Below, piece after piece: positions 6,604 to 52,691 of a DNA stretch of 64,000 bases. The DNA lies in assembly GCA_963770995.1 (NCBI GenBank), contig CAVYRS010000002.1, positions 43,500 to 107,499 on the forward strand, read 5' to 3'. The DNA comes from an uncultured Acidobacteriota bacterium. Lineage in GTDB: Bacteria > Acidobacteriota > Vicinamibacteria > Vicinamibacterales > CAVVIG01. Position 1 is the first letter of the stretch. Each line of letters begins with the position of its first letter. The notes under the pieces were generated by a model. That model was not told where the DNA came from. It ran no database searches and saw nothing but the letters and a program-made list of their open reading frames with translations. The position numbers were made by a program, and so were the translations under genes.

Positions 6604-6633
6604 TCCCCGGTCGGTCTGTTACTGCTGGAGGAT

Positions 6634-9345: not shown

Positions 9346-9373
9346 ATCGTAAGCGCGTATGATACGGCAGACC

Positions 9374-9449
9374 GTACGTGGGGTCCGGCTTCAGCCGGAC
9401 CTACAGCACTCGAGCCTCGCTGGTCCGCCTGAAGGCGGACCGCACGTAC
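9374..9449. repeat. REP family 1 dimer (GTACGTGGGGTCCGGCTTCAGCCGGACC ... GGTCCGCCTGAAGGCGGACCGCACGTAC)
   Basis: Two GC-rich stem-loops in inverted orientation carry GTACGTG/CACGTAC outer termini. They lie just upstream of the GGT start. Confidence 0.9.
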
Positions 9450-9463
9450 AAAACGGAGGACTT

Positions 9464-11247: not shown

Positions 11248-11256
11248 AGATCCGAC

Positions 11257-11357
11257 ATGGCTAATGGCTGAATGGCTAAGGGCTAAGGGTCAAGGGCTAA
11301 GCGTCGGGGTTGAACCCAATGGTTAGCCATTCCGTAAGCCATTAGCCATCAGCCATG
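11257..11357. repeat. Word hairpin, ggctaag vocabulary
   Basis: The sequence is atggctaatggctgaatggctaagggctaagggtcaagggctaag-loop(gggttgaaccc)-ggttagccattccgtaagccattagccatcagccat. It lies between convergent stops. Confidence 0.85.
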
Positions 11358-21543: not shown

Positions 21544-22761
21544 CTAGATCAACGCAACACCCGGCTCCTGGATCGGACACCCCTCGATCCGGCGCACGAG
21601 CGCCGCGTCGGCGAGCTTGTCCGCGGCGTCCACGCACAGGGGCCGCGCCGGCACTCGACGCGCGGCGAAGACCGCTTCGGCGAAGCTGCGATCGCCGACG
21701 AGCGGCCGGCCGCCGATCATGACGAGCATCAAATCGCCCCGGCTCGCCTCGAGCACCGACTCCGCCGCGGACGGCGCGAGCGGCGGCACGACCACGAAGT
21801 CCGCGAGCAAGCCGGCCGCGATCCGGCCCGCGCGCGGCTGACGCAGGACATCCGCCGCGTCGTGCGTCACCATCGCGAGCAGCTCCGACGTCGACAACGG
21901 CGCCGAGGCTCGGGCCACGCGCAGCTCGTCGAGCAGGTCGCGCCCGCCGGTGATCCGCGAATCGGTGCCGATCGCAACGCGCGGCCGCTCGGGGTTCCGG
22001 AGGAGGTCGCTCATTGCGGCGGTGCGGCCAAAGAGAAACAGATTGGACGCCGGACACCACACCAACGATGTCTGGTTCGCCGCCACGCGCCGCCACCCTT
22101 CGTCGTCGATCGCGACGCCGTGGACGATCACCGTGTTGGCCTTCAGGCAGCCCAGCGATTCGAGCCGCGGCAGTTCCTCGCCAGCCGCCGCGTCCACGCC
22201 CTCGCCCAGATGCACCATGAACGGCAGGCTCGGCGCCGTCGCGCGCCAGCGCGCCGCCACGCTGCCGCCCAGTTCGCCGCGCGCGCCGGCCGGCTGCTTC
22301 TCGAGCGCGAAGGAGTGCGCCCAGCCGTAGCGCCGCAGCACGCGCACCGGCACGCCGCAGCGAAAGTCGCGATAGTACGGGTTGTGATGCGCAACGAGCG
22401 TCACGCCCGCGAGCAGGTTCTTGAGCGCGCCGGCAAACAAGCGCTCCGCCAGCGGATGCGATCGCCCGGCACGGATGTCCGGATCGTCCTGGAGGCGCGG
22501 CCGCATGTCGTCGATCCACTGCGTCGCGTTCTCGTAGCGATCCCGGAACTTGAGGCGGCCGTAGTGATTCAGTTCGAGATGATCGTGCGCGTTGATCAGA
22601 CCCGGCAGGACGAACGCGCCATTCAGGTCAACAACGGTGTCGCGGGCGCGCGGGCGATCGCCGACCGCGATGACGCGCCGTGCAAAACGCACGCAGTCCG
22701 TCATCCCGCCATCGGCCATCACCCGGCCATTGACGAACGCGACGGTGTGCGGCCAGGTCAC
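21544..22761 (-). CDS. Metal-dependent amidohydrolase family protein
   Basis: A GTG at 22761 overlaps the upstream stop (GTGA). Motifs are VLPGLINAHDHLELN, MVHLGEG, VIVHGVA and AIGTDSRI. The upstream part of ORF 21544..23160 is shadow sequence. Confidence 0.8.
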   Translation of the reverse strand: MTWPHTVAFVNGRVMADGGMTDCVRFARRVIAVGDRPRARDTVVDLNGAFVLPGLINAHDHLELNHYGRLKFRDRYENATQWIDDMRPRLQDDPDIRAGRSHPLAERLFAGALKNLLAGVTLVAHHNPYYRDFRCGVPVRVLRRYGWAHSFALEKQPAGARGELGGSVAARWRATAPSLPFMVHLGEGVDAAAGEELPRLESLGCLKANTVIVHGVAIDDEGWRRVAANQTSLVWCPASNLFLFGRTAAMSDLLRNPERPRVAIGTDSRITGGRDLLDELRVARASAPLSTSELLAMVTHDAADVLRQPRAGRIAAGLLADFVVVPPLAPSAAESVLEASRGDLMLVMIGGRPLVGDRSFAEAVFAARRVPARPLCVDAADKLADAALVRRIEGCPIQEPGVALI

Positions 22762-23465
22762 AAGTTCTTGACGGTGTGAAACACGACGACCACCGGCGGA
22801 TTGCGCCACCGCCGACGGAATTCCTTGACGCCCGCATCCTCGTCGTCGGTGAAGCGCGGTTCGCGGATCGCGACGGTTCGAAGCCCCGCGGCGTCTATCG
22901 CCGCCAGGTGATCGTCGATCGCATGGGCCGCGAACCCGAGCTCGTGCGCTTCGCCGTCGCGGCCCCGAAACGTGCGCTTCCACCCGTGCTGCGCCCACGA
23001 CGGATGAAAGTCCGAGTACACCAGGTGGCCGCCGCGCGCCAGCACGCGCGCCAATTCGCGCGTCCAGGCATGCAGATCCACGACGTCGCCGACAGTAAGC
23101 GAGGCGTTGACGACGTCGAATGCTCGCCGCGCAAACGGCAGCTGCCGCGCATCGGCACACACGAGACTCCGAGCTCGTCCTTCGATAGGCTCAGGACGAG
23201 CGAGTGGGTCTCGATTACGGCGAAGCATCGCCATGGAGAAGTCCACGCCCACTACGCGCGTGGCGCCGGTGCGTTTCAAGATCGGGAGATACCGCCCCGA
23301 CCCGGTGCCCACATCGAGTGCGCGGCTCGGCTGCAGCGTCATCAGGATCGATTCGACAATCTCCTGCTCGAGGCGCATCAACGGGTTGTGGGCGACGCCC
23401 GGATAGGTGTCGGCCCAGATGTCGTAGGCCGTGCGGATCTCCGCTGAAACCACTGGAGCAGCCAT
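22758..23465 (-). CDS. Class I SAM-dependent methyltransferase (MT1) carrying an in-frame REP2 unit
   Basis: ATG at 23465 overlaps the rSAM1 stop (TGATG). Motifs are ALDVGTGSGRYL, VVGVDFSMAML and GGHLVYSDF. The residues PLARPEPIEGRARS are encoded by the REP2 hairpin at 23171-23203. Confidence 0.8.
   Translation of the reverse strand: MAAPVVSAEIRTAYDIWADTYPGVAHNPLMRLEQEIVESILMTLQPSRALDVGTGSGRYLPILKRTGATRVVGVDFSMAMLRRNRDPLARPEPIEGRARSLVCADARQLPFARRAFDVVNASLTVGDVVDLHAWTRELARVLARGGHLVYSDFHPSWAQHGWKRTFRGRDGEAHELGFAAHAIDDHLAAIDAAGLRTVAIREPRFTDDEDAGVKEFRRRWRNPPVVVVFHTVKNL
23171..23203. repeat. REP family 2 unit inside the MT1 coding sequence
   Basis: The hairpin ctcgtccttcgataggctcaggacgag has the same stem and loop type as at 5797-5915. 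Confidence 0.75.
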
Positions 23466-24946
23466 CAGAATCCCGTCGTCTCCGGACGCTGATACCGAAT
23501 CAACCGATGCAGCGCCCGCAGTTCGTACGGCGCGTCGTACCAGCGCAGGGCGTATCGCCACGCGCTCGCCGCTCTCAACGCGGCGCGATGCAATCTGTGT
23601 CAGCCTCGGATCGGTCACGGTCGGGTAGAACGCGTTGACGACGCGCTCGAAATTGCGGACGCTGCGGCGCACTTCGGCATTCACCCACGGAATGCCGTCG
23701 CCGCGGCGCATCGAGAGCTGCTCCCAGACCGGCGACGCCCATTCCTCCAGCGTCTGCGGAAACGCAAAACCCAGTCGTTTCGCGCCGTCGTACAGCTGGC
23801 CGTCCATCGGCACCGGCGTGTAGGTGTAGAGCACGATCTCGGTGCGCGGGTTGATCTTCTTCAGCCGTCGGATGAAACTCAAACGTCGCCTCGACATCCT
23901 GGAGCGGATCGGGCGGCGATCCGAGGACGAACGAAAACTCAGGGATGACACCGTAGGTCTGCATCCGCCGGGCGAGCTCGAGCGTCAGGTTCGACGACGC
24001 CTTGCCGCCCTTGTTCATCGCCGCGAGCGTCGCGTCGCTGGCGGCTTCGGCGCCCGAGAACACCATCTTCAGGCCCGATCGCGCCATCTTCTGCCACGTC
24101 GCGTCGCTGTACTGCATGAGCGTGTCGATACGTCCCAGCGCCCACCAGGCAACGCCGAGCCTCTCGATGCGCTCCGCAAACTCCGCGGTACGCGCCTCGG
24201 AGATGAAGAAGTCCATGTCGTGCATCTGGACGGCGTCGATCCCGTAGGTGGCGACGAGGTCCTCGCAGCGCGCGTTCCATGCGCGCCGGCGACTGCGCGA
24301 TCCAGCGACGGTTCGACATCGCCACGACCGCACAGAAGCTGCACGCAAATGGACAGCCGAACGACGAGTTGTACGCAACCGTGCGGCGGCCGAGATAGTT
24401 CCGATGGAGATACCGCGTCATGTCCACGCGGTCGTACGGCAGGTCCGGCAGATCGTCGAGGGGCGTGAGCGCGCCGGTCGAGTTGTGGATGACGCTCGTG
24501 CCCGCCTTCCACGACAGGGCCGTGACGCGCGCGAGCGACCCGCCGGATCGGAGCGCGGCGAGCAACTGCAGCAGCGGCTGCTCGCCCTGCGAACGAACGA
24601 CGAAATCCACGAGCGGCGACGCGAGCACCGTGTCGGCGTGCTGCGTCGGAAAGTAGCCGCCCCACACGATTGGCACGTCCGGCAGCTCGGCTTTGACCCG
24701 TCGGCAGACGGCCACCGCCTGCGTCAACTGCGGCCCTGGCATGACGGTGACGGCGAGGAGCTTCACGGCCGACGCGGACGCCGCATCGAGCCGGGCGACG
24801 ATCTCGGCGGCGGGATCGGGAACGAGATTGCCGTCGACGAGCGACCAGGCATGTTCGTCGCCGAGGACCGCCGCGAGCGACATCAGCGACAGCGGCAGCG
24901 GCTGCTTTCCGGGCGTCGTCGAGAGCGGGTTGTAGAGGACGATCAT
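23465..24946 (-). pseudogene. B12-binding radical SAM protein (rSAM1) with three frameshifts (near 24290, 23875, 23580)
   Basis: The first segment is MIVLYNPLSTTPGKQPLPLSLMSLAAVLG...SFGCPFACSFCAV (CxxxCxxC). Then come EDLVATYGIDAVQMHDMDFF...GLKMVFSGAEAASDATL, FIRRLKKINPRTEIVLYTYTPVP... and a manually found tail WRYALRWYDAPYELRALHRLIRYQRPETTGF-stop. Confidence 0.8.
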
Positions 24947-25843
24947 CGCGCCATCCACAGGCCGAACGCGGCCGGTGCGCGCCGCAGCCGGACGCGCGCC
25001 AGGTGCCGGCGCAGCCGCCACGGCAGCGGTCCGCGCGTCGGCACGAACTGCGGGTGCAGATCCAGCGACTCCGCGATCTCACCCAGCCGAGCGAATGTCA
25101 GATAGCCGACGCCCGGTCGCACCACGCCGGAGATCGCGAGCTCGCGGCGAAAGCGCCGATCTCTGTCGTCAACCATGGCGGCGCCGTCGCGGTCGCGGCG
25201 GAACATCGGCGAGTCCATCACGACCAGCGCCCCGCCGGAGGCGAGCATGCGCCGCGCGCGCGCGAGCGTCGCGGCGGCGTCCGGCGCGTAATGCAGCGAC
25301 CCGTTGAAGACGACGAGATCGAACTGCTTCGGCACGAACGGTAACGCGTCGAAGTCCGCCTGCACGGCGGTAAACGGCACGTCGTAGTGGCGCGCACGCA
25401 CCCAGTCCATCCGCCTCATCGTCGAGCGCGTCCACCGCGACCACGCGCTGGCCCAGCGCGGCCAGGCGATGCGACAGCCACCGCGTGCCGGCGCCGACAT
25501 CGAGCACCTGCATCGGCTGCGACGAGGACGCGAGCACGCGCTGGAGCAGGTGGTGATAGGTTTCGCGGCGCACGAGCCACTCGCCTGCCTGCGGATCGGT
25601 GCGTGACACCGACGGCAGCGTTCGGTAGTGCTCCGACGGCAAGAGCCGCCGGTGACCGTCGCGATCGCGCACGGTCTGGTACTGATTCAGAAACGGTGCG
25701 AGCCGCTCCGCGCGCGCAGCCGTCAGGAATCGCCAGACGCCGTCGCGCCGCTCGTAGGTTCGCGCGCAGAAGGCGCACGCGCGTGCGTCGGGATCCTGCT
25801 CCTCGAGCGTCGCGCCGCATTCCGGGCAGGCAAAGCGTGGCAT
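24943..25843 (-). pseudogene. SAM-dependent methyltransferase with N-terminal Trm112-like zinc ribbon (MT2); one frameshift near 25405
   Basis: The first segment is MPRFACPECGATLEE...CAFCARTYERRDGVWRFL then VLDVGAGTRWLSHRLAALGQRVVAVD (ORF 25169..25855). It continues ARHYDVPFTAVQADFDALPF...FNGSLHYAPD in ORF 24943..25500. Its stop overlaps the rSAM1 start (ATGA). Confidence 0.75.
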
Positions 25844-25855
25844 CCAGGCATGCAC

Positions 25856-26661
25856 TCATCTCGCCTTCCCCAGCACGATCAGAAAGTGATCGCCCCATCG
25901 ACGCACCAGCGGCCACGCGCCGATGACATCGTCGACGTGCTCGAGCGCGTCGACGAGCGCCGGATGACGGTCGGCGAACGCGTGCAGGTACGGCGGCGGC
26001 GCGAACAGACCGAGCGCGCGCAAGTGCACTCGTGAAAACCCGGCCGCCGCGCACCGCTCGCTCGAACGAACGCCGGGGAGTAGTACCGCGTCCACACCGT
26101 GCGGCCGTCGAGCGGCACGGCCACGGGATCGGAGGCGAAGCGAACCGTCGCACGCCGCCAATCGCCGCGCGCGAGGTAGAACGCGACCTCCCAGGGACAG
26201 ATCCGGCCGATCACCGACGCGATGAGAAAACCGCCCGGACGCAGGCGGCCGGCGATCCCGCGCAGAGCGGCAGCGAGATCGGGCACGCAGTTGAGCGCGC
26301 CGAAGTTCGAGTAGACCGCGTCGAACGCGGCCGGCGCGAGGCGATCGATCTCGTGAATGCCCAGGTGCTGCACCTCGACGCGATCGCCGAGCCCGGACTG
26401 CCGGATTCGGCGCTCAGCCTGCTCCACCATCGCCGGCGACCAATCGATCGCAACGACGCGATCGCCGCGACGCGCGAAGTGTTCGGCGTCCGCCCCCGGT
26501 CCGCAGCCGAGATCGAGAAGGTGCGCGCCGGCGGGCACGAACCGCTCGACCGTGTGACGGACCCGGTCGCGCATCGCGGACAGAATGCGGTTCTCGGTGT
26601 TCGAGCGGTCGTAGTCAGCGGCAACGCCGTCGAACGCCCGCTGCGTATCGAGGAGCGCGCC
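25856..26661 (-). pseudogene. Class I SAM-dependent methyltransferase (MT3); one frameshift near 26070; start codon unclear
   Basis: The upstream in-frame stretch is ALLDTQRAFDGVAADYDRSNTENRILSAMRDRV. Then come LLDLGCGPGADAEHFARRGDRVVAIDWSPAMV and YSNFGALNCV. The tail FSRVHLRALGLFAPPPYLHAF...IVLGKAR is in ORF 25856..26161. No ATG/GTG lies between the upstream TAG (26662) and ATG 26574. Confidence 0.7.
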
Positions 26662-27725
26662 CTACGACGCCCACGGCGAGTTCCTCCAGCCGGCGTTGAG
26701 CGAACAGACGCAACGCGCGCACGTCGGATCGGAATCCATGTCGAGCGATGCACGGAACGTGCGCAGGTTGCGAGTGACCAGATCAGCGAGCGGCGCGCGG
26801 CGGATGTTGCCGACAGGCGGGTGAAAGAAGCAGGGCCGCACCGACCCGTTGGCCTCGAGCACCACCGACACCCACGGCGCGTTGCAGGCGACGGGCGGAA
26901 ACGGACCGTCGCCGCCGAGCGCGGCGTAGTACTGCGGCAACCGCCGCAGCTTTGCCGGCGATTCCGCAACGAACCCGGACGCGAAATCTCCCTCGTAGCG
27001 GGTCACTGTCCGCTCGACGATGGTTCGGAACTCGCGCACTTCGTCAGGGGTCGAGCGCCAGACCTGGGGACAGACGTCGGGGACGGACTTCGACCGAAGG
27101 CGCTCGACGACACGTCCGCGGCGAGAAACGAGATGCCGTCAACGCCGATCGCCTTCGCGTGATCGATGAGCCGCGGCAGCTCGCGGAAATTCGCCCGGTG
27201 CAAGGTCGCCCGCGCCGTCACCGGCACCTGGGGCGCGACACGGCGCAGACGCGCGATGCCGCGTCCGACCGTCGCCAGACCCTTGATCCCACGCACTTCT
27301 TCGTAGAGCGAATCGCTCGCCGCGTCGAGCGAGACGAACACCCTGGAAAATCGTTTCGCCACCTGGTCCGCGGAACGCTCCAACAGCACACCGCTCGTCA
27401 ACAGTTGCAGCGAGAGGCCGCGCGCGCGGAACATGTCGGCCGCGTCGAACACGTCCTGCCGCAACAGGGGCTCGCCGCCGGAGAAGGCGACCACACGCGT
27501 GCCGAGCGCGGGCAGCGCGTCGGCCACCGCCTCGATCTCCTCGAGCGTCAGATCGTCCTCGCCGGTGTGCGTCCACCAGTCGCACGAGACACAGCGGCTG
27601 TTGCAGCGGCTCGTGGGATAGAAGATCAGCAGCGGCAGTACCAACGTGCGGTTCATGGCCGCGCCGAGCCTGACGAACACCGCCGTCGACACCGCTCTTG
27701 CCGTCGCCGATCCGTAGACACTCAT
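26662..27725 (-). pseudogene. Radical SAM protein with C-terminal SPASM/twitch-like Cys-rich domain; one frameshift near 27090
   Basis: The core is LLIFYPTSRCNSRCVSCDWW (CX3CX2C), AFSGGEPLL. The tail is SKSVPDVCPQVW...CNAPWVSVVLEANGSVRPCFFHPPVGNI...DPTCARCVCS. ATG at 27725 overlaps the upstream stop (ATGA); the alternative start is ATG 27656. Confidence 0.75.
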
Positions 27726-28468
27726 GATGCGAGCGACGGCCGCATCCATTCGGCAATCGCTTTTTCGATCGGGAACGCATACACATCGCGCTGGCAGCGC
27801 CAGCGCGCCACCGCCTGAATCGGCATCCGCCAGGCGGACGGCTTCGCCCATCCGATGCGCTGATAGAACCGGAACCGCTCGATCACCGCCCGCTTCCCGG
27901 CGTCCACCCAGGGACTCCGCGAGCTGTCGCGCTCGATGGCAGCCCACTCGCGCAGGCTGCGCGGCAGCGGATACCCGGAGCGCGCCAGTTCGTCAGTGAT
28001 CAGCGAGTAATCGTGCTCGGGAAAGTCGTTGATGTCGCCCATCGGCCGCGAGACGATGCCGGACACCTGTTCGCCCGCTGCGAACGCCTCGACGATCTCC
28101 GCAAACGCGCGCTCGCCCTGCCCGACGATAACCGCGTCGACTCCCGCCTCGGCCAGCGTTTCGCTGGGGAACAACGACGGATGCCAGCCGCCCCAGACGA
28201 TACGGCATCCCGGCCGTCCCGCCTGGACGGCTTCGGTGACGGCGAGCGCGTCGGCGATCGGAATACCCGTCAGGACGCCGATGCCCAGGCACAACGCGCC
28301 GTCGGTCGCTTCGAGGACCCGCGCCATCGGATCGCGTTCGAGCCGTCCATCCACAATCGTCACGTCGAACCGGGAGCGATCCAGCGCCGAGGCAATCGCG
28401 ACGAGGCCCAGCGGCATCGTGTAGAACGGCGCGCGCGGGTTGTAGAGAACGATGCGGTGTTTGCGCAT
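27722..28468 (-). CDS. B12-binding-domain protein lacking the radical SAM core (deletion derivative of an rSAM1-type enzyme)
   Basis: The N-terminus is MRKHRIVLYNPRAPFYTMPLGLVAIASAL...RIVWGGWHPS...VIVGQGERAF, a B12 domain. It is fused directly to a tail homologous to the rSAM1 tail (PRSLREWAA...PWVDAGKRAVIERF...AVARWRCQRDVYAFP). No CxxxCxxC is present. Confidence 0.7.
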   Translation of the reverse strand: MRKHRIVLYNPRAPFYTMPLGLVAIASALDRSRFDVTIVDGRLERDPMARVLEATDGALCLGIGVLTGIPIADALAVTEAVQAGRPGCRIVWGGWHPSLFPSETLAEAGVDAVIVGQGERAFAEIVEAFAAGEQVSGIVSRPMGDINDFPEHDYSLITDELARSGYPLPRSLREWAAIERDSSRSPWVDAGKRAVIERFRFYQRIGWAKPSAWRMPIQAVARWRCQRDVYAFPIEKAIAEWMRPSLAS

Positions 28469-28474
28469 GGTCCG

Positions 28475-30011
28475 TTACTTCAACGTCGACTGATCCGTGG
28501 GAACCGCGGCGGCCTGCGGACTCGACAGCGGAATGAGCAGCGGCAGCGTCTGCGCTGCGGGCTCGCTCAACCCCGCGAGCCGCCGCTGCAACATCGGCAG
28601 CCTGAGCGCATGCCACGCCAGGTGCGCCACCTCGTGCGCGTGGCGGCCGCGAAGCGACAAGGGTCGCGCTGCGGCGCGGGCGATCGCGTGCATCGACTTG
28701 CGCACGCGGAACTCCGAGTGCACGAGCGCGTAGAGCGCGCGGTAGAAATCCGGCGCGTAGGTCGCGCTGTACATCATCGCGAGATCGTCCGAGTCGAGCC
28801 AGTTCTGCTTCGCGCCAAGCTGCGACTTGACGCGGTTGTAGAACGGCGTGCCCGGCAGCGGGTACGACACCGAGACGCCGATGTCGTCCGGCCGGCACGT
28901 GCGCACCATCTGCAGCGTCTGGTCGATGTCGTCGCGCGTTTCGCCGGGATAGCCGAACTGGAGGAAAAAGCCCACCTCGATGCCCGCGTCGCGCAGCAGA
29001 CGCGTCGCCGCCACGACCTGATCTACGCGAATCCCCTTCTCCATCGCGTCGAGAATCCGCTGCGAGCCCGATTCGGCGCCGAGCCACACCGTGCGGCATC
29101 CGGCGGCGCGCAGCGCGCCGGCGATGGCGGGCGTCACCTGATCGGCGCGCAACAGACATTTGAACGGGATCACCGCATCTCGCGCCTGCACGAGATCGGC
29201 GAAGCGCGCGATCCATCCGGGCTTCAACCCGAAGATGTCGTCGGCAACCCACAGATGATCGGGACGATAGGTCCGCTTCAACCAGGCGATCTCGTCCACC
29301 ACCTGCTCGGGCGATCGCGCCGTGTAGCGTTGTCCGTAAATTGGCTTCGCGCACCAGTTGCAGTGGTACGGACATCCCCGGGTCGTGACGACGTTCATCG
29401 AGAAATAGCCGTGCCGCTCGCGCCAGAGCGCTTCGTATCGCGGCACGTCGACGAGATCCCAGGCGGGCCGCGCCAGCGCGTCGAGGTCGCGCACGATGTC
29501 GCGTGGCGGCGTCCGGAACACGCGACCGTTCCGCAGCCACACGCCGTTCACGTCGGCGAGGGCGCCGGGCCGCGACCCGGACAACCGATCCAGCACTTCG
29601 ATCAGCGTGATCTCGCCTTCGCCGGCGATCACCACTTCGGCGCCGCTGATCGAGATACGTACCTGGATGGTCGCTGGCGTCCGCGCCGGCCACGATGGTG
29701 ACGATGCCCCGGGCACGCGCCGCGTCGATCATCGTCAGCGCCGCCTCGCGCATGCGCAGCAAGCACATCTTGCTCAGGTAGTTGAAGTTGTCTTCGTAGA
29801 TGACAGCGAAGCGCGGGCGATGGCGATCGAGCGCCGCGGTCCAGTCGTCCACCGACTCGGCGAGCATGGCATCGAAGAGCGCGACGCTGTACCCGTGCGC
29901 GCGAACGGCGGCAGCGGCGTAGAGCGTGCCGAGCGGCGGGTACGGCTGCTGCGCTTCCCACAGCTTCGGATCGAAGCGAAGGAAGTAGGCCTGGCCGAAG
30001 AGAACATCGGC
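28475..30011 (-). pseudogene. B12-binding radical SAM protein (rSAM2); one frameshift near 29645; no own start codon in frame
   Basis: The first segment is VLFGQAYFLRFDPKLWEAQQPYPPLGTLYAAAAVRAHGYSVALFD...IVTIVAGADASDHP in the frame of ORF 27993..31259. It continues GAEVVIAGEGEITL...VVTTRGCPYHCNWCAKP...WLGAESGSQRILDAM in ORF 28475..29716. Confidence 0.75.
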
Positions 30012-30020
30012 GCTCGCCCC

Positions 30021-30123
30021 ATGTGGTGCGTCGGGTCCGGCTTCAGCCGGACCTATAGTGAGACCCTCGCGACGTCTGTAGGTCCGCCTAAAGGCGGACC
30101 CCATATACGCGGAGCCCACGTAC
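30021..30123. repeat. REP family 1 dimer bridging the GT4 and rSAM2 reading frames
   Basis: The units gggtccggcttcagccggacc and ggtccgcctaaaggcggacc are flanked by a cacgtac-like terminus. They translate in frame as YVGSAYMGSAFRRTYRRREGLTIGPAEAGPD. Confidence 0.85.
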
Positions 30124-30134
30124 TTCGTCCTCGA

Positions 30135-31259
30135 GGCTGACCCTGCGTGCTTCGCGACGCTCCGATACACCTCGAGACTCTCGCGCGCGGCGCGGTCCCA
30201 TGAAAATTCTTCCGCGCGCGCCAGCCCCGCGGCCGCCATCCGCGCCCGCATCGCCTCGTCTCGGGCGAGATCGACGAGCGCGTCGCCAAGACTGTCCGCC
30301 TCGAGACGCTCGACATGTCTGACCGCCTTGCCGCCCACCTCGCCCAGCGCCGAAGCAGACCCCGTGATCACCGGCACGCCGCACGCCATCGCTTCGATCA
30401 CCGGCAACCCGAAGCCTTCGTACATCGACGGGTACACGAACATCTCGGCGAGCGAGTACAGCGCCGGCAGGTCTTCGAAGGGCACGTACCCGGTGAAGGT
30501 GATCGCGCGATCGAGTCCGCCTCCCGCGATCCGCTCACCAATCCCGCGCGACATCCAGCCGTACGGGCCGACACACACGAGTTGGTGCGAGAGATCGCCG
30601 GCCTGCAGCCGCTGCGCGAAGGCATCGATCAGCGTCGGCAGGTTCTTGCGCGGCTCGATCGTGCCGACGTACAGGATCACCCGCTTCTCGAGGCCGTACT
30701 TCCGCCGGACCCGCGCGAGCGTGTCCGGATCGCGCACCGGCGTGAACGACGGCGCCGCGGCTTCGTAGACGACGCGGACGCGCCCCGGATCCACGTGGTA
30801 GGAGCGGACGATGTCTTCCTTCGCGCTTTCGGACACGGTGATGATGGCGTCGGCGCGCCGCGCCGCGAGCCAGACCAGCGGCCCGTTGAGCAGCACGCGG
30901 CGAGGCGGGTGATACCGCGGATAGAGCCGCAGGCTCACATCGTGAATCGTGACCACCGTGGGCACGCGCGACAACACGGGGACCATGCCGTTGGTGAAGT
31001 GCGCGACCTCCGCGTCTATCGCCTTCAACGCCGTGGGCGCGTGCAGCTGAATCCACACCATGCGCGGCACGTGGCGCGGCGCAGTGACGATGCGCACGTG
31101 CGGCGGCAGCGGTCGATCCGTATCCACTGTTTGATTCGACAGCACCGTCAGCTCGCCGGCGCCGGTCTGTCCGGCGAGGTGATGCAGCAAGTGCTCGGTG
31201 TAGTAGCCGACGCCGGTTCGTCGGGGACGCAGCGTCGTGCCGTCAAATGCGATGCGCAT
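30135..31259 (-). CDS. Glycosyltransferase family 4 (GT-B, GT1 superfamily); no stop codon before the REP linker
   Basis: The sequence runs MRIAFDGTTLRPRRTGVGYYTEHLL...VTIHDVS...ILYVGTIEPRKN...FVYPSMYEGFGLPVIEAMACGVPVI. The homology-like region ends about ...EVYRSVAKHAGS. Confidence 0.85.
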
Positions 31260-33033
31260 CCGCGCAGGTCTCCACGCCGCGCGCGCACGCCGCGGCCAGT
31301 CCGAGGGTCAGCGAGAAGAGCACGTAGATCGGCGCGAACTCGAGGAACGAATCGACCAACCCGTGGAGCGCCATCGCGATAACTGCGGCGCTGATGCCGA
31401 CGGCGATCGCGCCGCTTCCGCGGGTGGAGCGCACGACGCCGGCGGCGCAGGTACGGGCCGCCGCCAGGAGCCACCACGCGAACGCGGCGGCCGTCACCAG
31501 CCCGCCGCCGGTCAGCATCTCGAGATACATGTTGTTGCTGTGCATGCGCGTGTCGCGCGTGTCGAGCTCGGCATACGAGGCGTAGGTCAGCCGATAATTG
31601 TCCGGACCGAAACCGAGCAGCGGACGCGCGGCAAACATCCGTCCCGCCGCGCGCCACAAGACGAGGCGGCGCGGACGCCAGCCGGGCCGCGGCCGCGGAA
31701 ACGGCGCCAGCGCGCCAGCCAGCGCCGGACCTTCGACGATCGCGTGCGACACCGCGGCGGTCGCGCCGGGTTCGTCGCTGAACCAGGTGCGGCGCTCCTG
31801 CACGACATCCCACACCAGTCGGTAACGGCCCGGACGCCGCGGCGCACGCACGGTGGCCGGTATCGTGGCCACGCCTCCGGACGAGACCGTCGAGTCGAAT
31901 GGCGTTCGCACGCCGTCGAACATCACGTACCGGTCTTCGTCTTCGAGCATCCAGTGGTACGACAGGAAGAACGGCGACTCGGCGCGGGAGCTCCAGTCGA
32001 GCCGCCCCAGGTTGGTGACGGTGACGGGAATCGTCGTGGACGTTCCGGTCGCGAGCCTGACGTTCGCGGGCGCCTGGATGACGGCGCGATACCAGGATTC
32101 CTGCCCTTCCGTCGTGAAACGCAGCCAGATCGAGTCGAGCGATCGCGACGCGAAGAACAACACGGCGATCGAGGCGCCAAGCCCCACGAGGAGCCATCCA
32201 CCCCGCTCGACGCCCGCGCGGCGAATCCGCATGGCGCAGCACCAGCCGAGCGCGGCGGCCATCACAATCAACCCCGCTCGAGTGAACGTCAGCGTGATCG
32301 CGTAGGCGATCAGGAGGAGCGTGGCGAAGATGATGGCAACGCGCGCGCGCCGCGCGGTGTCGAGGCTCGCGATCATGAGGCCGGCGCCGATCGCGAAGAC
32401 GACCTCGAGATACATCGACGCGATCGTCGGGTATTGCAGAGACCCGCCGGCGCGGACCACGGCGCCGACCGTTGCCACCTGCGGACGGAACGTCTTCAAT
32501 CCCCGCAGCACGGCGGGAACGGTGAGGTACTCCAGCACGGCCAGCACGCTGACGGCCGCAGCCGCCGCCAGCGCGAGCGCAATCGCCGCGGTCAGCCGCG
32601 CGCGTGTGATAACGCCGTTGACCGCGAGGAGGTAGACGCCGAGTGCAACGGCGACGCGTCCGGTCATGTGCAGGGCGTTGAGCCTCGCCGTCGGCGCAGC
32701 CACGGTGGCAAGCGCCATCGCGGCAATCAACAGCAGCCACGGCCCGGTCAGCGGCGTGCGCCACAGCGGCAGGCGGCGCGTCCAGATCAGAGCGACGACC
32801 CAGCCGAGAAAGGCCGCGGCGAGCACCAATTCGAGATTGCTCACCGACTGCCCCGGCAGGTGAAAGAGCGGCTCGAGTCGTTCGAACGGTGCCACGAGCA
32901 TCAACACCACGACGCCGGCGAACGCCGTCGTGCTGGCGCGGTCGGATCGCGCGCGGACGAAGGCGGACGCGACGCCGGCCGGGAGATACGGCAACGTGGC
33001 GGGCGCCGTGTTGGTGAGGGCGGTCCCAGACAT
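31243..33033 (-). CDS. O-antigen ligase/polymerase (Wzy_C-like) polytopic membrane protein with inserted extracytoplasmic beta-rich domain
   Basis: ATG at 33033 gives MSGTALTN.... It has many TM helices, a Wzy-like loop (SLQYPTIASMYLEVVFAIG...FTRAGLI), an insert (IPVTVTNLGRLDW...RYRLVWDVV) and the tail HSNNMYLEMLTGGGL. It overlaps the GT4 start by 17 nt. Confidence 0.75.
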   Translation of the reverse strand: MSGTALTNTAPATLPYLPAGVASAFVRARSDRASTTAFAGVVVLMLVAPFERLEPLFHLPGQSVSNLELVLAAAFLGWVVALIWTRRLPLWRTPLTGPWLLLIAAMALATVAAPTARLNALHMTGRVAVALGVYLLAVNGVITRARLTAAIALALAAAAAVSVLAVLEYLTVPAVLRGLKTFRPQVATVGAVVRAGGSLQYPTIASMYLEVVFAIGAGLMIASLDTARRARVAIIFATLLLIAYAITLTFTRAGLIVMAAALGWCCAMRIRRAGVERGGWLLVGLGASIAVLFFASRSLDSIWLRFTTEGQESWYRAVIQAPANVRLATGTSTTIPVTVTNLGRLDWSSRAESPFFLSYHWMLEDEDRYVMFDGVRTPFDSTVSSGGVATIPATVRAPRRPGRYRLVWDVVQERRTWFSDEPGATAAVSHAIVEGPALAGALAPFPRPRPGWRPRRLVLWRAAGRMFAARPLLGFGPDNYRLTYASYAELDTRDTRMHSNNMYLEMLTGGGLVTAAAFAWWLLAAARTCAAGVVRSTRGSGAIAVGISAAVIAMALHGLVDSFLEFAPIYVLFSLTLGLAAACARGVETCADAHRI

Positions 33034-33083
33034 CCTGATGAAGCGTGGTTGGATGGCGAACGGCGTCCAAGAACCTTGCCAGG

Positions 33084-33172
33084 GAATTGCGGGATTGGAG
33101 GATTGCGGGATTGCAGGATTTAATTGTTCAATTCCAATCCTGCAATCCTGCAATTCAGCAATCCTGCAATTT
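33084..33172. repeat. Word hairpin, gcaggatt vocabulary, in a divergent intergenic region
   Basis: The sequence is ggaattgcgggattggaggattgcgggattgcaggatt-taattgttcaatt-ccaatcctgcaatcctgcaattcagcaatcctgcaatt. The same word family occurs at 52597. Confidence 0.85.
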
Positions 33173-33227
33173 AAGGAGGGCACGCCTGCTGCATACGTCG
33201 CGAAGCGAACCCTGCAGGCGCGGGCAG

Positions 33228-34574
33228 ATGCGGAACCCCCTTACGGGCGACGAAAGCTCGTTTCAAAAGCCGAAATCACACGCGGTTGCCCTGTTTGCGT
33301 ACAAGGCTGCCGCGGACGTGGCCGCGAAGCTCGTGCTGTTCGCGATCACGGTCGTCGCGGCTCGCCGGCTGACGCCGGTGGCGTTCGGCGTCTTCTCGCT
33401 GGGCTCGACGCTCGGCTGGATGGCGGCCGTCGGCGCCGACTTCGGCATGCAACTGCATGTGGCCCGCGCGGTCGCACGCGCACCCGATCAGGCCGCGGCG
33501 CTACTCGCGGCCTGGTTGCGCGTCCGGTTGTGGACGGCAGCAGCGGCGCTCGCCCTCGTCGTCGTAGGAGTGGCGGCCGCAGGATCGAGCGCAGACGTCG
33601 CTGGCCCGATCGTCGTCCTCGCGCTCGTGTACGCCGTCAGCGGCCTGGTCGAGTTCCTGCACTATTTCTATCGCGGGCTGTCCCGCAGCGACATCGAATC
33701 GTCGCTGACAGTTTTCCAGCGGCTGGCGACCCTGGTCTTCGGATTCGCGGCGCTTGCGTGGCGGCCGACGGTCGGGACGCTCGCGATCGCGATCCTCATC
33801 CCGGCGGTCGCGACGTTGATCGTGAGCCTCGGAATCGCGCGGCACCTCTCGAATGGGTGCATGGGGTCCGCCTGTAGGCGGACCGACACACCCGCTGGTC
33901 CGGCTAAAGCCGGACCCCACGTACAAAGACAAGCCGGCCCCCACGTACGGACAGTCTTCCGCCGCGACGTCGCGCCGATCGGCGCGGGGATCCTGCTCTC
34001 AGCGCTCTACTTTCGGATCGATGTGTTCCTCGTGCAGCTGTGGTCGGGCACGGAGTCGGTGGCGCTCTACAACGCGGTGTTTCGCGTGATCGAAGGCCTC
34101 CGCCTGTTTCCAGCTGCGGCGATGGCCGTCGCGCTGCCGGCGCTGTGCCGCGCGCGCGATCTGCGTCCGCTGATGAACGTGTCGGCGACCCTCGTCGGCG
34201 GCGCCTGCCTGACGACCGCAATGGCGTGGCCGGCCGCGGACTGGATCGTGCCGTTCCTGTTTGGCGACCGCTACGCGCCCGCGATCCCCGCCTTTCGCAT
34301 CCTGCTGCTGTCGTTTCCTCTGCTGTCGCTGAACTACGCGTTGACGCATCAGCTCATCGGGTGGGACGGCCAGCGGGCGTATGCCGGCATCTGCGCGACT
34401 GCCCTTCTCGTGAACCTTGCGCTCAACGCCCGGCTCATACCCGCGCTGTCCATCGAAGGCGCGGCGTGGGCGACGATTGGCACCGAATTCGTCGTCACCG
34501 CCGGTTGCGTCATCGCACTCGCGCGAGTGAGCACGGTCCCAGAGCTGACGGTGGCGGATTCGAGGATCGGATGA
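33228..34574 (+). CDS. Polysaccharide biosynthesis/MOP-family flippase (Wzx-like) with an in-frame REP1 dimer in a central loop
   Basis: ATG at 33228 gives a protein with about 12 TM helices (AARRLTPVAFGVFSLG, LYNAVFRVIEG...). The residues GCMGSACRRTDTPAGPAKAGPHVQRQAGPHVRT are encoded by REP1 units. Confidence 0.8.
   Translation: MRNPLTGDESSFQKPKSHAVALFAYKAAADVAAKLVLFAITVVAARRLTPVAFGVFSLGSTLGWMAAVGADFGMQLHVARAVARAPDQAAALLAAWLRVRLWTAAAALALVVVGVAAAGSSADVAGPIVVLALVYAVSGLVEFLHYFYRGLSRSDIESSLTVFQRLATLVFGFAALAWRPTVGTLAIAILIPAVATLIVSLGIARHLSNGCMGSACRRTDTPAGPAKAGPHVQRQAGPHVRTVFRRDVAPIGAGILLSALYFRIDVFLVQLWSGTESVALYNAVFRVIEGLRLFPAAAMAVALPALCRARDLRPLMNVSATLVGGACLTTAMAWPAADWIVPFLFGDRYAPAIPAFRILLLSFPLLSLNYALTHQLIGWDGQRAYAGICATALLVNLALNARLIPALSIEGAAWATIGTEFVVTAGCVIALARVSTVPELTVADSRIG
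33863..33948. repeat. REP family 1 units inside the Wzx coding sequence
   Basis: The units are ggggtccgcctgtaggcggacc and ggtccggctaaagccggaccccacgtac, plus a degenerate gccggcccccacgtac. Confidence 0.85.
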
Positions 34575-35497
34575 CACCCAGCGAGATCGCCATCGCGCGG
34601 AGCGTCATCTATGCGTCGCTCTTCGACTATCCGCTCACGCTCCATCAGCTCCACCATGCGCTGATCGAATCCGATCAATCGCCTTCGGAGGTTCTCGCCA
34701 CCTACAACGCGAGCGAGCGGCTCCGACGCGTGGTCGGCTATCGGGACGGCTTTTTCTTCCCGATCGGGCGGAGCGAGCTCGTCGCCGAGCGCCGTCATCG
34801 CGAAGCGCGCAGCCGCGCGTTCCTGCAGCGCTACCGCTCGGTGCTCCGATTGATCTGCGCGGTTCCGTTTACGCGTATGGTTGCCCTCTCCGGAAGCATC
34901 GCGCACCTGAACCTCGAGCGCGGCGGCGACCTCGATCTCTTCATCGTCACACGCGGCCGTCACGTCTGGACCGTCGCGGTCACGGTGCTGATCCTGACGA
35001 AGTGCCTGGGGCGGCGGCGGATCGTCTGCGCGAACCTGATCCTGGCCGATTCGCGGCTGGCGCTCGACCAACAGGATCTGTTCACGGCCAACCAGGTGAT
35101 CCATCTCAAACCGCTCGTCGGCGACGAGCTGCTGGACGACTTTCTCGCGGCCAACCCGTTCGTTCGCCGCCTCTATCCGAATGCGCTCGCATGGCATCCG
35201 GATCGCATCGTTGATTTGCCTGGGCGTGGAGTCTTGCAATCGCTGAAACGCGCGCTCGAACTGGCGCTTGCGCTGCCATCACCGCTCATCGAGCGCGCCT
35301 GCCGGCGACTCTACAGTTGGTACCTCCGGCGCCGGGCCGGCGGCTGGCGTTCCCCGGAACAAGCAAAACTCGATCCCGACTTCCTGAAGCTCCACACCCG
35401 CAGCCACCGCCACTCCGTGCTCGACCGCTTCGAACGCGCCGTCGCAGATGCCTGGCGCCGCGCGAATCGCGCCGGCGCCCGCTCGGCGGCCCGGTAG
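34571..35497 (+). CDS. Hypothetical protein, possible nucleotidyltransferase (Pol-beta superfamily)-like
   Basis: The start overlaps the Wzx stop (ATGA). The stretch VALSGSIAHLNLERGGDLDLFIVT resembles the GS...D.D motif of minimal nucleotidyltransferases. Otherwise it is unrecognised. Confidence 0.55.
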   Translation: MTPSEIAIARSVIYASLFDYPLTLHQLHHALIESDQSPSEVLATYNASERLRRVVGYRDGFFFPIGRSELVAERRHREARSRAFLQRYRSVLRLICAVPFTRMVALSGSIAHLNLERGGDLDLFIVTRGRHVWTVAVTVLILTKCLGRRRIVCANLILADSRLALDQQDLFTANQVIHLKPLVGDELLDDFLAANPFVRRLYPNALAWHPDRIVDLPGRGVLQSLKRALELALALPSPLIERACRRLYSWYLRRRAGGWRSPEQAKLDPDFLKLHTRSHRHSVLDRFERAVADAWRRANRAGARSAAR

Positions 35498-35504: not shown

Positions 35505-35568
35505 GCCCGTCCCGAGCCCGTCGAAGGACGAGCGACGTGCTCGTGGTTCGACAAGCTCACCACGAGCG
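35505..35568. repeat. REP family 2 unit(s)
   Basis: The sequence is cccgtcccgagcccgtcgaaggacgagcgacgtgctcgtggttcgacaagctcaccacgagcg. It translates as VVRQAHHE-type peptide in the spurious N-terminus of ORF 35537. Confidence 0.75.
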
Positions 35569-35611
35569 TTTGCTGGTCGTATACTTCTGGTTCTCACCAA
35601 GGAGCCTCTCG

Positions 35612-38600: not shown

Positions 38601-38620
38601 TGCCCCCAAAACGGTCGTAA
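35612..38620 (+). CDS. Secreted sortilin/VPS10-like BNR (Asp-box) repeat beta-propeller protein, paralog 1
   Basis: ATG at 35612 gives the signal peptide MRVVRTLGVCALASLVFAA. Asp-box-like repeats include KSTNQGTTW, KSVDAGRTW, KTVDAGQTW, RTRDGGITW, RSTDGGNTW and VTRDGGQKW. The 1002-aa ORF is intact. Confidence 0.85.
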   Translation: MRVVRTLGVCALASLVFAAERSPLVAQAISAIDAAFLTGLRWRSIGPANTGGRVDDVAVARVPGAPDAIYVATASGGLFKSTNQGTTWAPVFDRVDAMMSIGDVAVAPSSPSTVWVGTGEANNRQSSSWGDGVYKSVDAGRTWTPVGLADTKHIGRILIHPTNPSIVYVAAAGHLWGPNAERGVFKTVDAGQTWQKVLFVDVNTGATDLAMDPRNPDVLYAAMYQRQRAAWGFNGGGTGSGIFRTRDGGITWTRLTEGLPKGEVGRIGLETSLVDSGVLYAVVEAVGRDGGVYRSTDGGNTWEHMSPLNPRPMYYSQIRLDPKDRNRVYLLGSNRGFYISDDSARSFRDVFSGVHSEDHALWIDPDDTNHLIVGGDGGVSISWDRGTTWQFRDNLPIGQFYEIGVDMQDPYSICGGLQDNGHWCIPSATRNRTGISNRDGFNIGSGDGFYTRIDPTDPRTVIVESQDGRAHRVNLATLERQVIAPLPGERSARGERERWNWNTPIVMSAFDPKVLYIGSSIVFRSPDLGLTWKAISPDLTARVDRETLRMMDALVPERAVSRHDGQTSFSTLTTIGESPLDAKLLYTGSDDGQVFVTRDGGQKWTNVTANIPALPPSTYVSSVLPSRHVAGRVYATFDGHFNDDYRAYIYVSDDFGRTWRPIAAGLPQTSVNRLREHPRNARLLFVGHERGIHVSLDAGASWSSLNLNMPNVPVDDLVIHPRDNDLIAGTHGRSIWVLDNIAPLEALTSDAARTDAHLVSPARTRLLSVYTPQAWFGAGQFFAPNPEFGATIDYFLPGASPENTQVLISDANHQLVRTLTVPSRRGLSRVTWDLRFEQPATEVDRQTGTSLLGGATPSGPLVLPGSYGIVLKAPGVRRELKATLVVDRDPRASFSDADRRTRQTALMDLYALQQTLGRARVASRDARPAPTQVQGAIASQLTAIGNLSRAIEGYSGVPTIDQHRQIGRAFDEVAKIVAEVNRLLRSDTAAQPQPIHVPPKRS

Positions 38621-52171: not shown

Positions 52172-52246
52172 AACGCAAAGCACGCAAAGAGCGCAGCGAA
52201 GCCTCCAGGCCATGAATTCTTTGCGGTCTTCGCGGTCTTGGCGTTC
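52171..52246. repeat. Word hairpin, cgcaaag vocabulary
   Basis: The sequence is gaacgcaaagcacgcaaagagcgcagcgaagcc-loop-ttctttgcggtcttcgcggtcttggcgttc, between convergent stops. Confidence 0.85.
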
Positions 52247-52596: not shown

Positions 52597-52691
52597 CATT
52601 GCAGGATTGCGGAATGGCAGGATTGCAGGATTGCCATTGGGAAATTGACGCAATGAATCCTGCAATTCTGCAATCCTGCAATCCCGCAATG
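52597..52691. repeat. Word hairpin, gcaggatt vocabulary
   Basis: The sequence is cattgcaggattgcggaatggcaggattgcaggattgcc-attgggaaattgacg-caatgaatcctgcaattctgcaatcctgcaatcccgcaatg. Confidence 0.9.

Follow-up and report, generated by a model that had tools for sequence, protein, structure and literature searches.

A conserved radical SAM and methyltransferase cluster with a candidate role in envelope glycoconjugate assembly in Acidobacteriota and Chloroflexota

What is made by a locus that places a Wzx-type flippase, a Wzy_C-family protein and a single family 4 glycosyltransferase (GT4) together with radical S-adenosylmethionine (SAM) enzymes and SAM methyltransferases is the question raised by positions 21544-35497 of the window, by which is meant the whole stretch of 64,000 nucleotides analysed here from an uncultured Acidobacteriota bacterium (contig CAVYRS010000002.1, assembly GCA_963770995.1). 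The radical SAM enzymes and methyltransferases take up more than half of the coding capacity of this cluster, in agreement with the unusual richness in such genes that had been remarked on before. The answer proposed here is a conserved Acidobacteriota and Chloroflexota cassette that would assemble and tailor a glycoconjugate of the envelope, anchored in the membrane and probably built on a polyprenyl carrier. This reading of the sequences is held with about even confidence, and confidence in any single chemical step, every one of them predicted, is much lower than that in the class of process. It draws on the domain content, the translational coupling, the co-conservation and the gene fusions of the cluster, all of which were directly established.

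A glycosyltransferase fused to a B12-binding radical SAM enzyme

At the G+C content of 64-70% the raw lists of open reading frames (ORFs) are noisy, and genes were called from a plot of G+C in third codon positions (GC3) by frame together with translations and Pfam. The gene content and order of the initial annotation, which was made from the sequence alone, were reproduced in this way, but two of its parts have to be redrawn. The GT4 and the second B12-binding-domain radical SAM enzyme (B12-rSAM2), listed there as separate genes, share one reading frame that is free of stop codons between the domains (ORF 27993..31259). The fusion gene, at 28475..31259 on the minus strand, has Pfam matches to GT4, B12-binding and Radical_SAM families; its GT4 domain lies at approximately 30150-31259, followed by a linker (~30000-30150) and by the B12-binding and radical SAM domains (28475-~30000). 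The GT4 domain scored 55.1 bits for the Glyco_transf_4 N-domain and 99.5 bits for the Glycos_transf_1 C-domain, the radical SAM domain scored 76.9 bits for PF04055, and the B12-binding family PF02310 was precomputed on full-length homologues. The same two parts are fused in 9 of the 21 related loci that have an adjacent GT4 (L002-L006, L008-L010 and L024) and in the metagenome protein P0032. Because the frame is shared without a stop here, in the nine loci and in P0032, the fusion is taken to be natural. The deposited gene call P0001 (386 amino acids, aa) starts downstream of a frameshift in the B12-rSAM2 part.

The second part to be redrawn is a "B12-only" protein of 248 aa (27722..28468, minus strand; B12-binding 60.5 bits). 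In BLASTP it aligns to residues 1-171 and 375-466 alone of a full-length 466-aa B12-rSAM in L002, which is the related locus closest to the window, with the junction at a short repeat, SLI(D/T)xE. From this two-part alignment it is identified as a third B12-rSAM from which about 203 residues, the radical SAM core included, are missing in frame. It is a singleton 90% cluster among about 15 billion proteins, and the third B12-rSAM gene is wholly absent in L003, L004, L006, L009 and L010. To judge from the alignment, the in-frame deletion, of 609 nt at ~27990-28000, is likely a genuine loss, the sole such case in the cluster. The radical SAM character of the enzymes thus stands as previously described, but the count of two predicted cobalamin-dependent ones does not, since three proteins carry a B12-binding domain, one of them truncated.

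The nearest solved relatives of B12-rSAM2 are QCMT (PDB 9CCB; 88.6 bits, E 3e-24), AprD4 (72.7 bits) and CysS (63.6 bits), with TokK (41.9 bits) and OxsB (37.5 bits) weaker. QCMT is a cobalamin C-methyltransferase, and entry 9CCB was recognised as QCMT through a review on B12-dependent radical SAM enzymes (PMC12931638). Models of candidate families were then compared with their curated cut-offs. HpnJ (TIGR03471) was the top NCBIfam match of B12-rSAM2, and the two scores for this model were 122.5 and 101.1 bits, below 577.6; those for BchE (TIGR02026) were 121.5 and 106.4 bits, below 481.35, and those for HpnR were 76.1 (B12-rSAM2) and 41.6 bits, below 650. B12-rSAM2 also matched ApyD (107.9 bits, cut-off 750), a ladderane-type lipid B12-rSAM (106.7 bits, cut-off 360) and the QCMT/MJ0865 family (TIGR04014; 103.8 bits, cut-off of 360 not reached). 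HpnP was absent among the NCBIfam matches, as were Tes and GenK, for which the presence of models in the library is unconfirmed. All scores being far below the cut-offs, B12-rSAM2 matches no curated family, and no other protein, whether from the window or an intact orthologue, exceeded any NCBIfam cut-off. For the GT4, represented by its L001 orthologue, there was no equivalog, the best match being an MSMEG_0565 glycosyltransferase model with 105.6 bits against a cut-off of 259.85. Many JGI records label members of the B12-rSAM2 family "anaerobic Mg-protoporphyrin cyclase", which the BchE score of 121.5 bits against a cut-off of 481 marks as an over-annotation. Behind about 60 variable residues, the B12-rSAM2 proteins have at their C-terminus (28475-28560 in the window) a tail, P(V/L)LSPQAAAVPTDQ, that is conserved in both phyla and may be a docking motif.

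The remaining radical SAM enzymes are encoded on the same strand. B12-rSAM1 (23465..24946) matched the B12-binding family PF02310 with 46.0 bits together with a Radical_SAM fragment. The nearest solved relative of its intact L001 orthologue is AprD4 (62.8 bits), and the AprD4 model in NCBIfam gave 69.8-73.8 bits against a cut-off of 500. The radical SAM/SPASM-domain enzyme (26662..27725) matched PF04055 with 68.7 bits and PF13186 with 36.9 bits (cut-off 21.5) on two frame pieces; its nearest solved relatives are BlsE (46.3 bits) and PqqE (37.2 bits), with no NCBIfam equivalog at cut-off and 45.6 bits for the BlsE model, for which the cut-off is 400. The motif CxxxCxxC is present in all three, as CPYHCNWC in rSAM2, CPFACSFC in rSAM1 and CNSRCVSC in the SPASM enzyme.

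Three class I SAM methyltransferases are likewise encoded on the minus strand. MT1 (22758..23465) is intact, with 67.9 bits for Methyltransf_11 and generic NCBIfam matches, the best of 57 bits against a cut-off of 155. MT2 (24943..25855) combines a CxxC...CxxC zinc ribbon with a methyltransferase domain that matched Methyltransf_11/23 on two pieces, and it is 77-79% identical to its L002 orthologue in two frames; MT3 (25856..26658) scored 70.9 bits for Methyltransf_25. The series ends with an intact amidohydrolase of the COG0402 deaminase/chlorohydrolase type (21544..22761, minus strand; Amidohydro_1 76.0 bits), with HxH (HDH) and HLGE motifs. Its best NCBIfam relative is 8-oxoguanine deaminase (62.2 bits, cut-off 532), the models for deaminases of methylthioadenosine/S-adenosylhomocysteine (MTA/SAH) and of 5'-deoxyadenosine gave 41-43 bits, PDB matches gave 24-35 bits, and guanine deaminases and TRZ/ATZ hydrolases are other weak relatives.

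Apart from the fusion, glycan assembly is represented by two intact membrane proteins. The Wzy_C-family protein of the O-antigen polymerase/ligase family (31243..33033, minus strand; PF04932 44.2 bits, cut-off 31.7) is 58% identical to its L002 orthologue in a single frame; the PF04932 match leaves polymerase and ligase roles undistinguished. The Wzx-type flippase of the Polysacc_synt/MOP family (33228..34574, plus strand; PF01943 50.6 bits, cut-off 28.2) is 61% identical to that of L002 over 474 aa, also in a single frame. It is followed by an intact gene for a 308-aa nucleotidyltransferase (NTase)-like protein, here called unk308 (34571..35497, plus strand), and these two genes stand on the strand divergent from the minus-strand series. 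Genes within the operon overlap or lie 7-24 nt apart. Each of the six stop/start overlaps quoted earlier was recovered on the coding strand: GTGA at 22758-22761, TGATG at 23463-23467, ATGA at 24943-24946 and at 27722-27725, a 17-nt overlap of Wzy and GT4 at 31243-31259, and ATGA at 34571-34574 between Wzx and unk308. The Pfam scan of 21544-35497 found a single GT4 and no sugar-nucleotide genes, as had been noted before, and likewise no chain-length regulator or exporter. The genes on either side (metallo-beta-lactamase, DUF4159, cytochrome c, sortilin/BNR protein, peptidases and a kinase) are unrelated, and the extent first assigned to the cluster is kept for that reason.

Conservation in two phyla and the unk308 family

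Species-representative genomes were searched with a B12-rSAM2 profile and the best 80 loci, all from genomes other than the source genome, were inspected. The number of species genomes with a relative of B12-rSAM2 is at least 539. Sequence identity to the query among the 80 best loci ranges from 55 to 79%, that between the phyla being 55-62%, and the nearest locus is from an Acidobacteriota metagenome-assembled genome (MAG). The loci belong to Acidobacteriota (Vicinamibacterales, Thermoanaerobaculaceae, Holophagae and Solibacteraceae) and, many of them, to Chloroflexota (Anaerolineae, Chloroflexia, Thermomicrobiales, Ardenticatenaceae and Caldilineales). Synteny by tblastn in the Acidobacteriota loci places unk308 and Wzx on one strand and, on the opposite strand, Wzy, GT4, rSAM2, sometimes rSAM3, the SPASM enzyme, MT3, MT2, rSAM1, MT1 and the amidohydrolase, in this order. 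In Chloroflexota the order is unk308, rSAM2, one or two more B12-rSAM paralogues, the SPASM enzyme, methyltransferases and rSAM1.

Components were counted by iterated hidden Markov models (HMMs) in those loci that have full 10-kb flanks, 12 of them Acidobacteriota-like and 26 from Chloroflexota and other groups. As many as 12/12 and 24/26, respectively, have unk308; GT4 is present in 11/12 and 13/26, Wzx in 10/12 and 13/26, Wzy in 9/12 and 13/26, and the amidohydrolase in 10/12 and 1/26. A Pfam census of 70 unassigned neighbouring ORFs returned for the most part additional methyltransferases, some of them of the MTS small-domain type, besides a few GT2, GT87 and PNP_UDP_1 proteins. Synteny, full-flank counts and neighbour census together show that the genes are co-conserved as a unit, with the order kept in Acidobacteriota and the core kept in Chloroflexota, and a chance juxtaposition is excluded by this co-conservation and by the spacing of the genes. 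Further fusions were seen in the Chloroflexota locus L050, which encodes an 857-aa rSAM2 that includes a class I methyltransferase and a 577-aa MT2 that includes a methyltransferase of the MTS type. Three loci with the cassette (L013, L069 and L030) come from MAGs labelled Bifidobacterium breve, cyanobacterium and Cytophagia, where it is probably due to binning contamination or mislabelling.

The most tightly linked partner of B12-rSAM2 is unk308, which is found directly upstream of it on the same strand in 39 of 53 Chloroflexota loci. It had no match in Pfam or NCBIfam. An AlphaFold2 (AF2) model (pLDDT 82, pTM 0.80) has a winged-helix-like N-terminus, a core resembling nucleotidyltransferases of the DNA polymerase beta (pol-beta) type and a helical C-terminus. 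The residues G108-S109...D120-x-D122, corresponding to the motif hG[GS]...DxD, are invariant in 28 homologues of 63-96% identity, and fold and sequence matches to the MNT/MntA and AadA nucleotidyltransferases and to winged-helix domains are weak. The family is large, with 4,095 representatives of 50%-identity clusters found by phmmer at E <= 1e-3 and 2,046 at E <= 1e-10. Among the best 150 relatives, 31 measure 660-1000 aa and have unk308 as their C-terminal domain. The N-terminal part was a GT4 in 10/10 of the long relatives tested, one of which has an extra methyltransferase domain, and the GT4 half of one such fusion is 38% identical to the GT4 of the window over 370 aa.

The surroundings of the GT4::unk308 fusions are those of lipid-carrier glycan machinery. 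In L082 a gene for a Bac_transf phosphoglycosyltransferase overlaps the fusion gene; in a second context a GT2::Wzx gene is followed by Wzy_C and by GT4::unk308::MT; in a third, with GT9 and GT87 adjoining, three B12-rSAM genes and two for methyltransferases come after the fusion; and in a fourth Wzx precedes the fusion and a methyltransferase follows. In view of these contexts and of the fusions themselves, GT4 appears as a hub that has repeatedly been joined to radical SAM and NTase-like domains. At 248-4135 of L086 a GT4::unk308 gene is co-directional and overlapping with genes for a type III polyketide synthase (PKS) and an ICMT-family methyltransferase, a neighbourhood that we take to be an alkylresorcinol-like phenolic-lipid context.

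A candidate pathway and its alternatives

In the proposed pathway a phosphoglycosyltransferase encoded elsewhere in the genome would make the primer, to which, on the cytoplasmic side of the membrane, the GT4 domain would attach a sugar, with a housekeeping nucleotide sugar as its donor. The attached sugar would then be modified at an unactivated carbon by the B12-binding radical SAM domain of the same fusion protein. B12-rSAM1, the SPASM enzyme and, ancestrally, the third B12-rSAM may carry out more radical steps, such as a second methylation, a deoxygenation, a decarboxylation or an epimerisation, while the three class I methyltransferases would supply O- or N-methyl groups. The candidate role of unk308 is to nucleotidylate the intermediate or to transfer a phospho-substituent onto it. 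Wzx would flip the product across the membrane, and the Wzy_C protein would polymerise it or ligate it to the final acceptor. The amidohydrolase might act as a deaminase, either on 5'-deoxyadenosine and SAH, which are inhibitory by-products, or on the substrate. The earlier suggestion of a glycan built on a lipid carrier is strengthened by the GT4 fusions and by the Bac_transf gene beside a GT4::unk308 fusion. Of the heavy C-/O-methylation or other radical modification suggested with it, the modification genes are present, and C-methylation is the most likely predicted chemistry of the B12-rSAM enzymes.

Several observations weigh against this pathway. Neither an initiating phosphoglycosyltransferase nor a chain-length regulator, an exporter or sugar-nucleotide genes were found among the cluster proteins and the scanned flanking ORFs, the latter a subset of those in the window. 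The resemblance to radical SAM enzymes that modify sugars is low (46-89 bits) and no better than that to HpnJ, BchE, ApyD or ladderane-type lipid enzymes, and some proteins with a B12-like domain, for example AprD4, work without cobalamin. The assignment of unk308 to the NTases is based on the motif and on weak fold matches. The PKS and ICMT neighbours in L086 suggest a phenolic-lipid acceptor there and hint that the module can serve lipid acceptors. About a third of the full-flank Chloroflexota loci (9/26) are without Wzx or Wzy within 10 kb, and for this reason an exported polymer may not be what the radical SAM/methyltransferase core contributes to in every locus.

All parts of the cluster are from known superfamilies and the overall logic of assembling, tailoring, flipping and polymerising is familiar. 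With the Wzx/Wzy loci for O-antigen, capsule and exopolysaccharide the cluster shares a MOP flippase, a Wzy_C protein and a GT4, all translationally coupled, and the Bac_transf initiating enzyme abutting GT4::unk308 in a related locus also fits. It differs from them in having a single glycosyltransferase and no sugar-nucleotide genes, initiating transferase, Wzz or Wza, and in that the GT4 is, in this cluster family, fused to a B12-rSAM or NTase-like domain. Mycobacterial gene clusters for methylglucose lipopolysaccharide (MGLP) and methylmannose polysaccharide (MMP) likewise combine a glycosyltransferase with a hydrolase and several SAM methyltransferases and yield a glycan that is heavily methylated, but with class I O-methyltransferases only and without radical SAM enzymes, Wzx/Wzy or an NTase-like protein. 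AprD4, which takes part in aminoglycoside 3'-deoxygenation, and the cytosylglucuronate decarboxylase BlsE are the best solved matches of the rSAM1 orthologue and of the SPASM enzyme, and both act on carbohydrate carbons, as do GenK-type C-methylases. Unlike these antibiotic pathways, to whose enzymes the similarity is low and below cut-offs, the cluster has no aminoglycoside or nucleoside antibiotic genes and is spread over hundreds of soil species alongside envelope-assembly genes. The N-terminal B12-binding Rossmann domain and the CxxxCxxC radical SAM barrel are shared with the OxsB/TsrM/TokK/QCMT class as outlined in PMC12931638. QCMT is the best solved match of B12-rSAM2, yet the cut-off of its family model was missed, and its context is methyl-coenzyme M reductase whereas that of the cluster is glycan genes.

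A different fate for the radical chemistry, in which the target of the radical SAM enzymes and methyltransferases is a membrane lipid (its head group, alkyl or polycyclic part) and not a polymerised glycan, is considered unlikely. Tailoring would then be hopanoid-, tetraether- or ladderane-like, with the GT4 sugar as a head group and Wzx translocating the glycolipid. Such a role would agree with HpnJ as the best NCBIfam match of B12-rSAM2 (122.5 bits), with the ladderane-type score of 106.7 bits, with the lack of an initiating phosphoglycosyltransferase in the cluster and with the one GT4::unk308 fusion adjoining a type III PKS and an ICMT methyltransferase. It also has a parallel in the combination of glycosyltransferase, hydrolase and B12-domain radical SAM enzyme on one membrane-bound sugar in the HpnI/HpnK/HpnJ hopanoid side-chain pathway, and in the archaeal calditol synthase, a radical SAM enzyme whose substrate is a sugar linked to a lipid, both as outlined in a review on lipid-modifying radical SAM enzymes (PMC13459092). 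The scores are however 3-8 times below the family cut-offs (122.5 against 577.6 for HpnJ), and no squalene-hopene cyclase, Tes/Mss-like, acyl- or prenyltransferase genes occur in the window cluster or the neighbour census, nor are hopanoid or tetraether genes nearby. HpnK is of the deacetylase type whereas the hydrolase of the cluster is of the COG0402 type, and one radical step would suffice in the hopanoid systems where the cluster has two or three B12-rSAMs, a SPASM enzyme and three or four methyltransferases. The co-occurrence of Wzy_C and the Bac_transf gene beside one fusion favour carrier-linked glycan assembly instead. Maturation of a ribosomally synthesised and post-translationally modified peptide (RiPP), with the B12-rSAM C-methyltransferases, the SPASM maturase and the methyltransferases acting on a precursor peptide, is extremely improbable. 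The combination of enzymes is common for RiPPs, ApyD (107.9 bits) and RiPP C-methyltransferases (60.5 bits) are weak matches and the N-terminus of unk308 is winged-helix-like, but genes that overlap or lie 7-24 nt apart leave no space for a precursor gene, Pfam scans of the cluster gave no protease, transporter or RRE family match, and the fusions to GT4 and the neighbours Wzx, Wzy_C, Bac_transf, GT2, GT9 and GT87 point elsewhere.

If the conserved core, composed of unk308, the B12-rSAMs, the methyltransferases and the SPASM enzyme, made a tailored activated sugar or a soluble glycoside in the cytoplasm, activated by unk308, then Wzx, Wzy and GT4 would be optional users of it, and we judge this to be quite unlikely. 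The linkage of unk308 to B12-rSAM2 (39/53 Chloroflexota loci), the nine Chloroflexota loci without Wzx/Wzy, the lack of canonical sugar-nucleotide genes in the cluster and weak matches of GT4 to MshA and BshA, makers of small-molecule glycosides, are in line with it. Sugar-1-phosphate nucleotidylyltransferases differ in fold from the pol-beta NTase type, however, and it is the pol-beta motif that unk308 has; Wzx and Wzy are moreover directly operonic in several compact versions of the cassette. The repeated fusion of GT4 to both unk308 and B12-rSAM2 suggests that modification takes place on or after glycosyl transfer and not before it, as in the carrier-linked pathway.

No curated family or solved structure describes the pathway, and full-text literature searches gave no account of the cassette, the GT4::B12-rSAM fusions or the unk308 family. 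Neither the cassette nor the unk308 family is described in the outlines and keyword matches of the two reviews on lipid-modifying and B12-dependent radical SAM enzymes (PMC13459092, PMC12931638), whose text likewise returned no mention by keyword of a GT4 or class I methyltransferase fused to a B12-rSAM. The features of note for radical SAM and envelope biochemistry are the breadth of the family, its conservation across phyla and the unusual fusions. Beyond the process class, it is put forward tentatively, as a doubtful possibility, that the cassette makes an unrecognised class of envelope glycoconjugate in two soil phyla that are among the most abundant, whose sugars are C-methylated or rearranged on a lipid carrier by glycosyltransferase::cobalamin-radical-SAM fusions and receive a substituent from a new family of NTase fold with GT4 as its obligatory partner. 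If true, hundreds of Acidobacteriota and Chloroflexota species would carry a surface glycan or glycolipid made by a kind of chemistry, a cobalamin-type radical SAM enzyme fused to a glycosyltransferase, that is new to envelope biosynthesis, and radical SAM enzymology would gain a substrate class. A function would then be defined for the unannotated unk308 family, which at 50% identity forms about 4,000 clusters, the soil supply of cobalamin would be tied to cell-surface construction, and the product could be a chemically distinctive methylated biomarker that is possibly preservable.

Frameshifts, intergenic repeats and other features of the window

The frameshifts reported in five genes of the cluster were borne out by blastx against the intact ORFs of L002, L003 and L009, followed by DNA alignment and three-frame inspection, which located nine of them and one anomalous SPASM|MT3 junction. 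All nine are +1 insertions in minus-strand genes. One is at ~29648 in GT4::B12-rSAM2 (blastx, DNA alignment) and one at ~25393 in MT2 (two blastx frames, DNA alignment); the SPASM enzyme has two at ~27083 and ~27046 (blastx pieces and the intermediate piece RRLSPGLALDP), MT3 two at ~26072 and ~26051 (blastx, three-frame inspection) and rSAM1 three at ~24260, ~23865 and ~23572 (four collinear blastx pieces in frames -3, -1, -2 and -3, DNA alignment). At the SPASM|MT3 junction an in-frame TAG (26662-26664) is followed straight away by the conserved N-terminus of MT3, which has no start codon. The junction is a GTGA/ATGA overlap in L001, L003 and L009, and L002 has a TAA stop with the MT3 ATG downstream.

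Outside the cluster, shifts were placed by codon-usage segmentation and Pfam profile coordinates. The gamma-glutamyltranspeptidase gene (9353-11261, plus strand) is in at least seven pieces in successive frames (profile positions 10-49, 39-93, 93-208, 203-265, 247-312, 321-374 and 407-453), each readable step being +1. Three more plus-strand genes change frame with a net +1: an O-methyltransferase (4730-5761), with the C-terminal half of its Methyltransf_2 match in a different frame, an NHL-repeat protein (6604-7831) and an M20-type amidohydrolase (50839-52262). With nine in the cluster, six in the transpeptidase and one in each of these three genes, there are at least 18 shifts of net +1 against 0 of net -1, which has a probability of about 2^-18 if both directions are equally likely. 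Natural bacterial gene decay is, if anything, deletion-biased.

Since all resolvable shifts are net +1, in the cluster as in four unrelated genes of the window, the frameshifts are very probably single-base insertion errors of the assembly, to judge from their direction and distribution. The opposite view, raised in the initial annotation, that they are genuine and that the cluster is a decaying pseudogene set in this strain, is highly unlikely. It could appeal to the shifts standing in the deposited assembly (NCBI/ENA gene calls P0001, P0244 and P0245), to their clustered, not uniform, distribution, with several 3-kb genes of the window intact, and to the real-looking 203-residue in-frame deletion in one component. 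Decay would however not account for unrelated genes broken in the same way, the transpeptidase most heavily, nor for the absence of nonsense codons within the homologous pieces, and the broken genes are as close to their L002 orthologues (65-93% identity) as the intact ones (55-64%). Apparent shifts in the same cluster also number about 12 in 72 kb in the MAG loci of one long-read project and about 2 in 262 kb in all other MAG loci (~0.17 against ~0.008 per kb, about 20-fold), and the genes that are damaged vary from MAG to MAG. The contig with the proteins of the window is 856,579 bp long in NCBI/ENA, a length in line with a long-read assembly. In the organism itself all genes but the truncated third B12-rSAM are probably intact. 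If the shifts are such artefacts, pseudogene calls from this contig are not to be trusted.

In a related long-read MAG (L001/L007, 5800-9980) Wzx, Wzy and GT4 are each in 3-4 fragments. A 607-aa "radical SAM + methyltransferase" protein in L001 (11628-13451) is judged to result from an indel in that MAG; the stop of the SPASM gene and the start of MT3 overlap there as GTGA in another frame.

The divergent intergenic region between Wzy and Wzx contains a palindromic array (33084..33171) of tandem 8-nt units, ATTGCGGG / CAATCCTG, with 36-nt arms that are 86% complementary. The longer ORFs of Wzy and Wzx are spurious N-terminal extensions read through this palindrome, and the true starts are likely the ATG at ~33033 for Wzy and that at 33228 for Wzx. 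The same motif array recurs in a second intergenic region (52620-52684), with 9 matches against 0.06 expected by chance. A cluster-specific operator was therefore rejected and the array is regarded as resembling repetitive extragenic palindromes (REP-like). Between its transmembrane blocks the Wzy_C-family protein has a soluble beta-rich insertion of about 130 residues (31700-32150; residues ~365-500 of the 646-aa ORF), which carries …VTVTNLGRLDWS…YRLVWDVVQE….

An Rfam search of the window gave no cobalamin or SAM riboswitch, its sole match being a c-di-AMP riboswitch of the ydaO/yuaA type (3904-4126, minus strand; 59 bits, gathering threshold 38) far from the cluster. Two large sortilin/VPS10-BNR repeat proteins are encoded at 35537-38620 (plus strand) and 58674-61934 (minus strand), the former of which is syntenic with the cluster in L009 with 81% identity.

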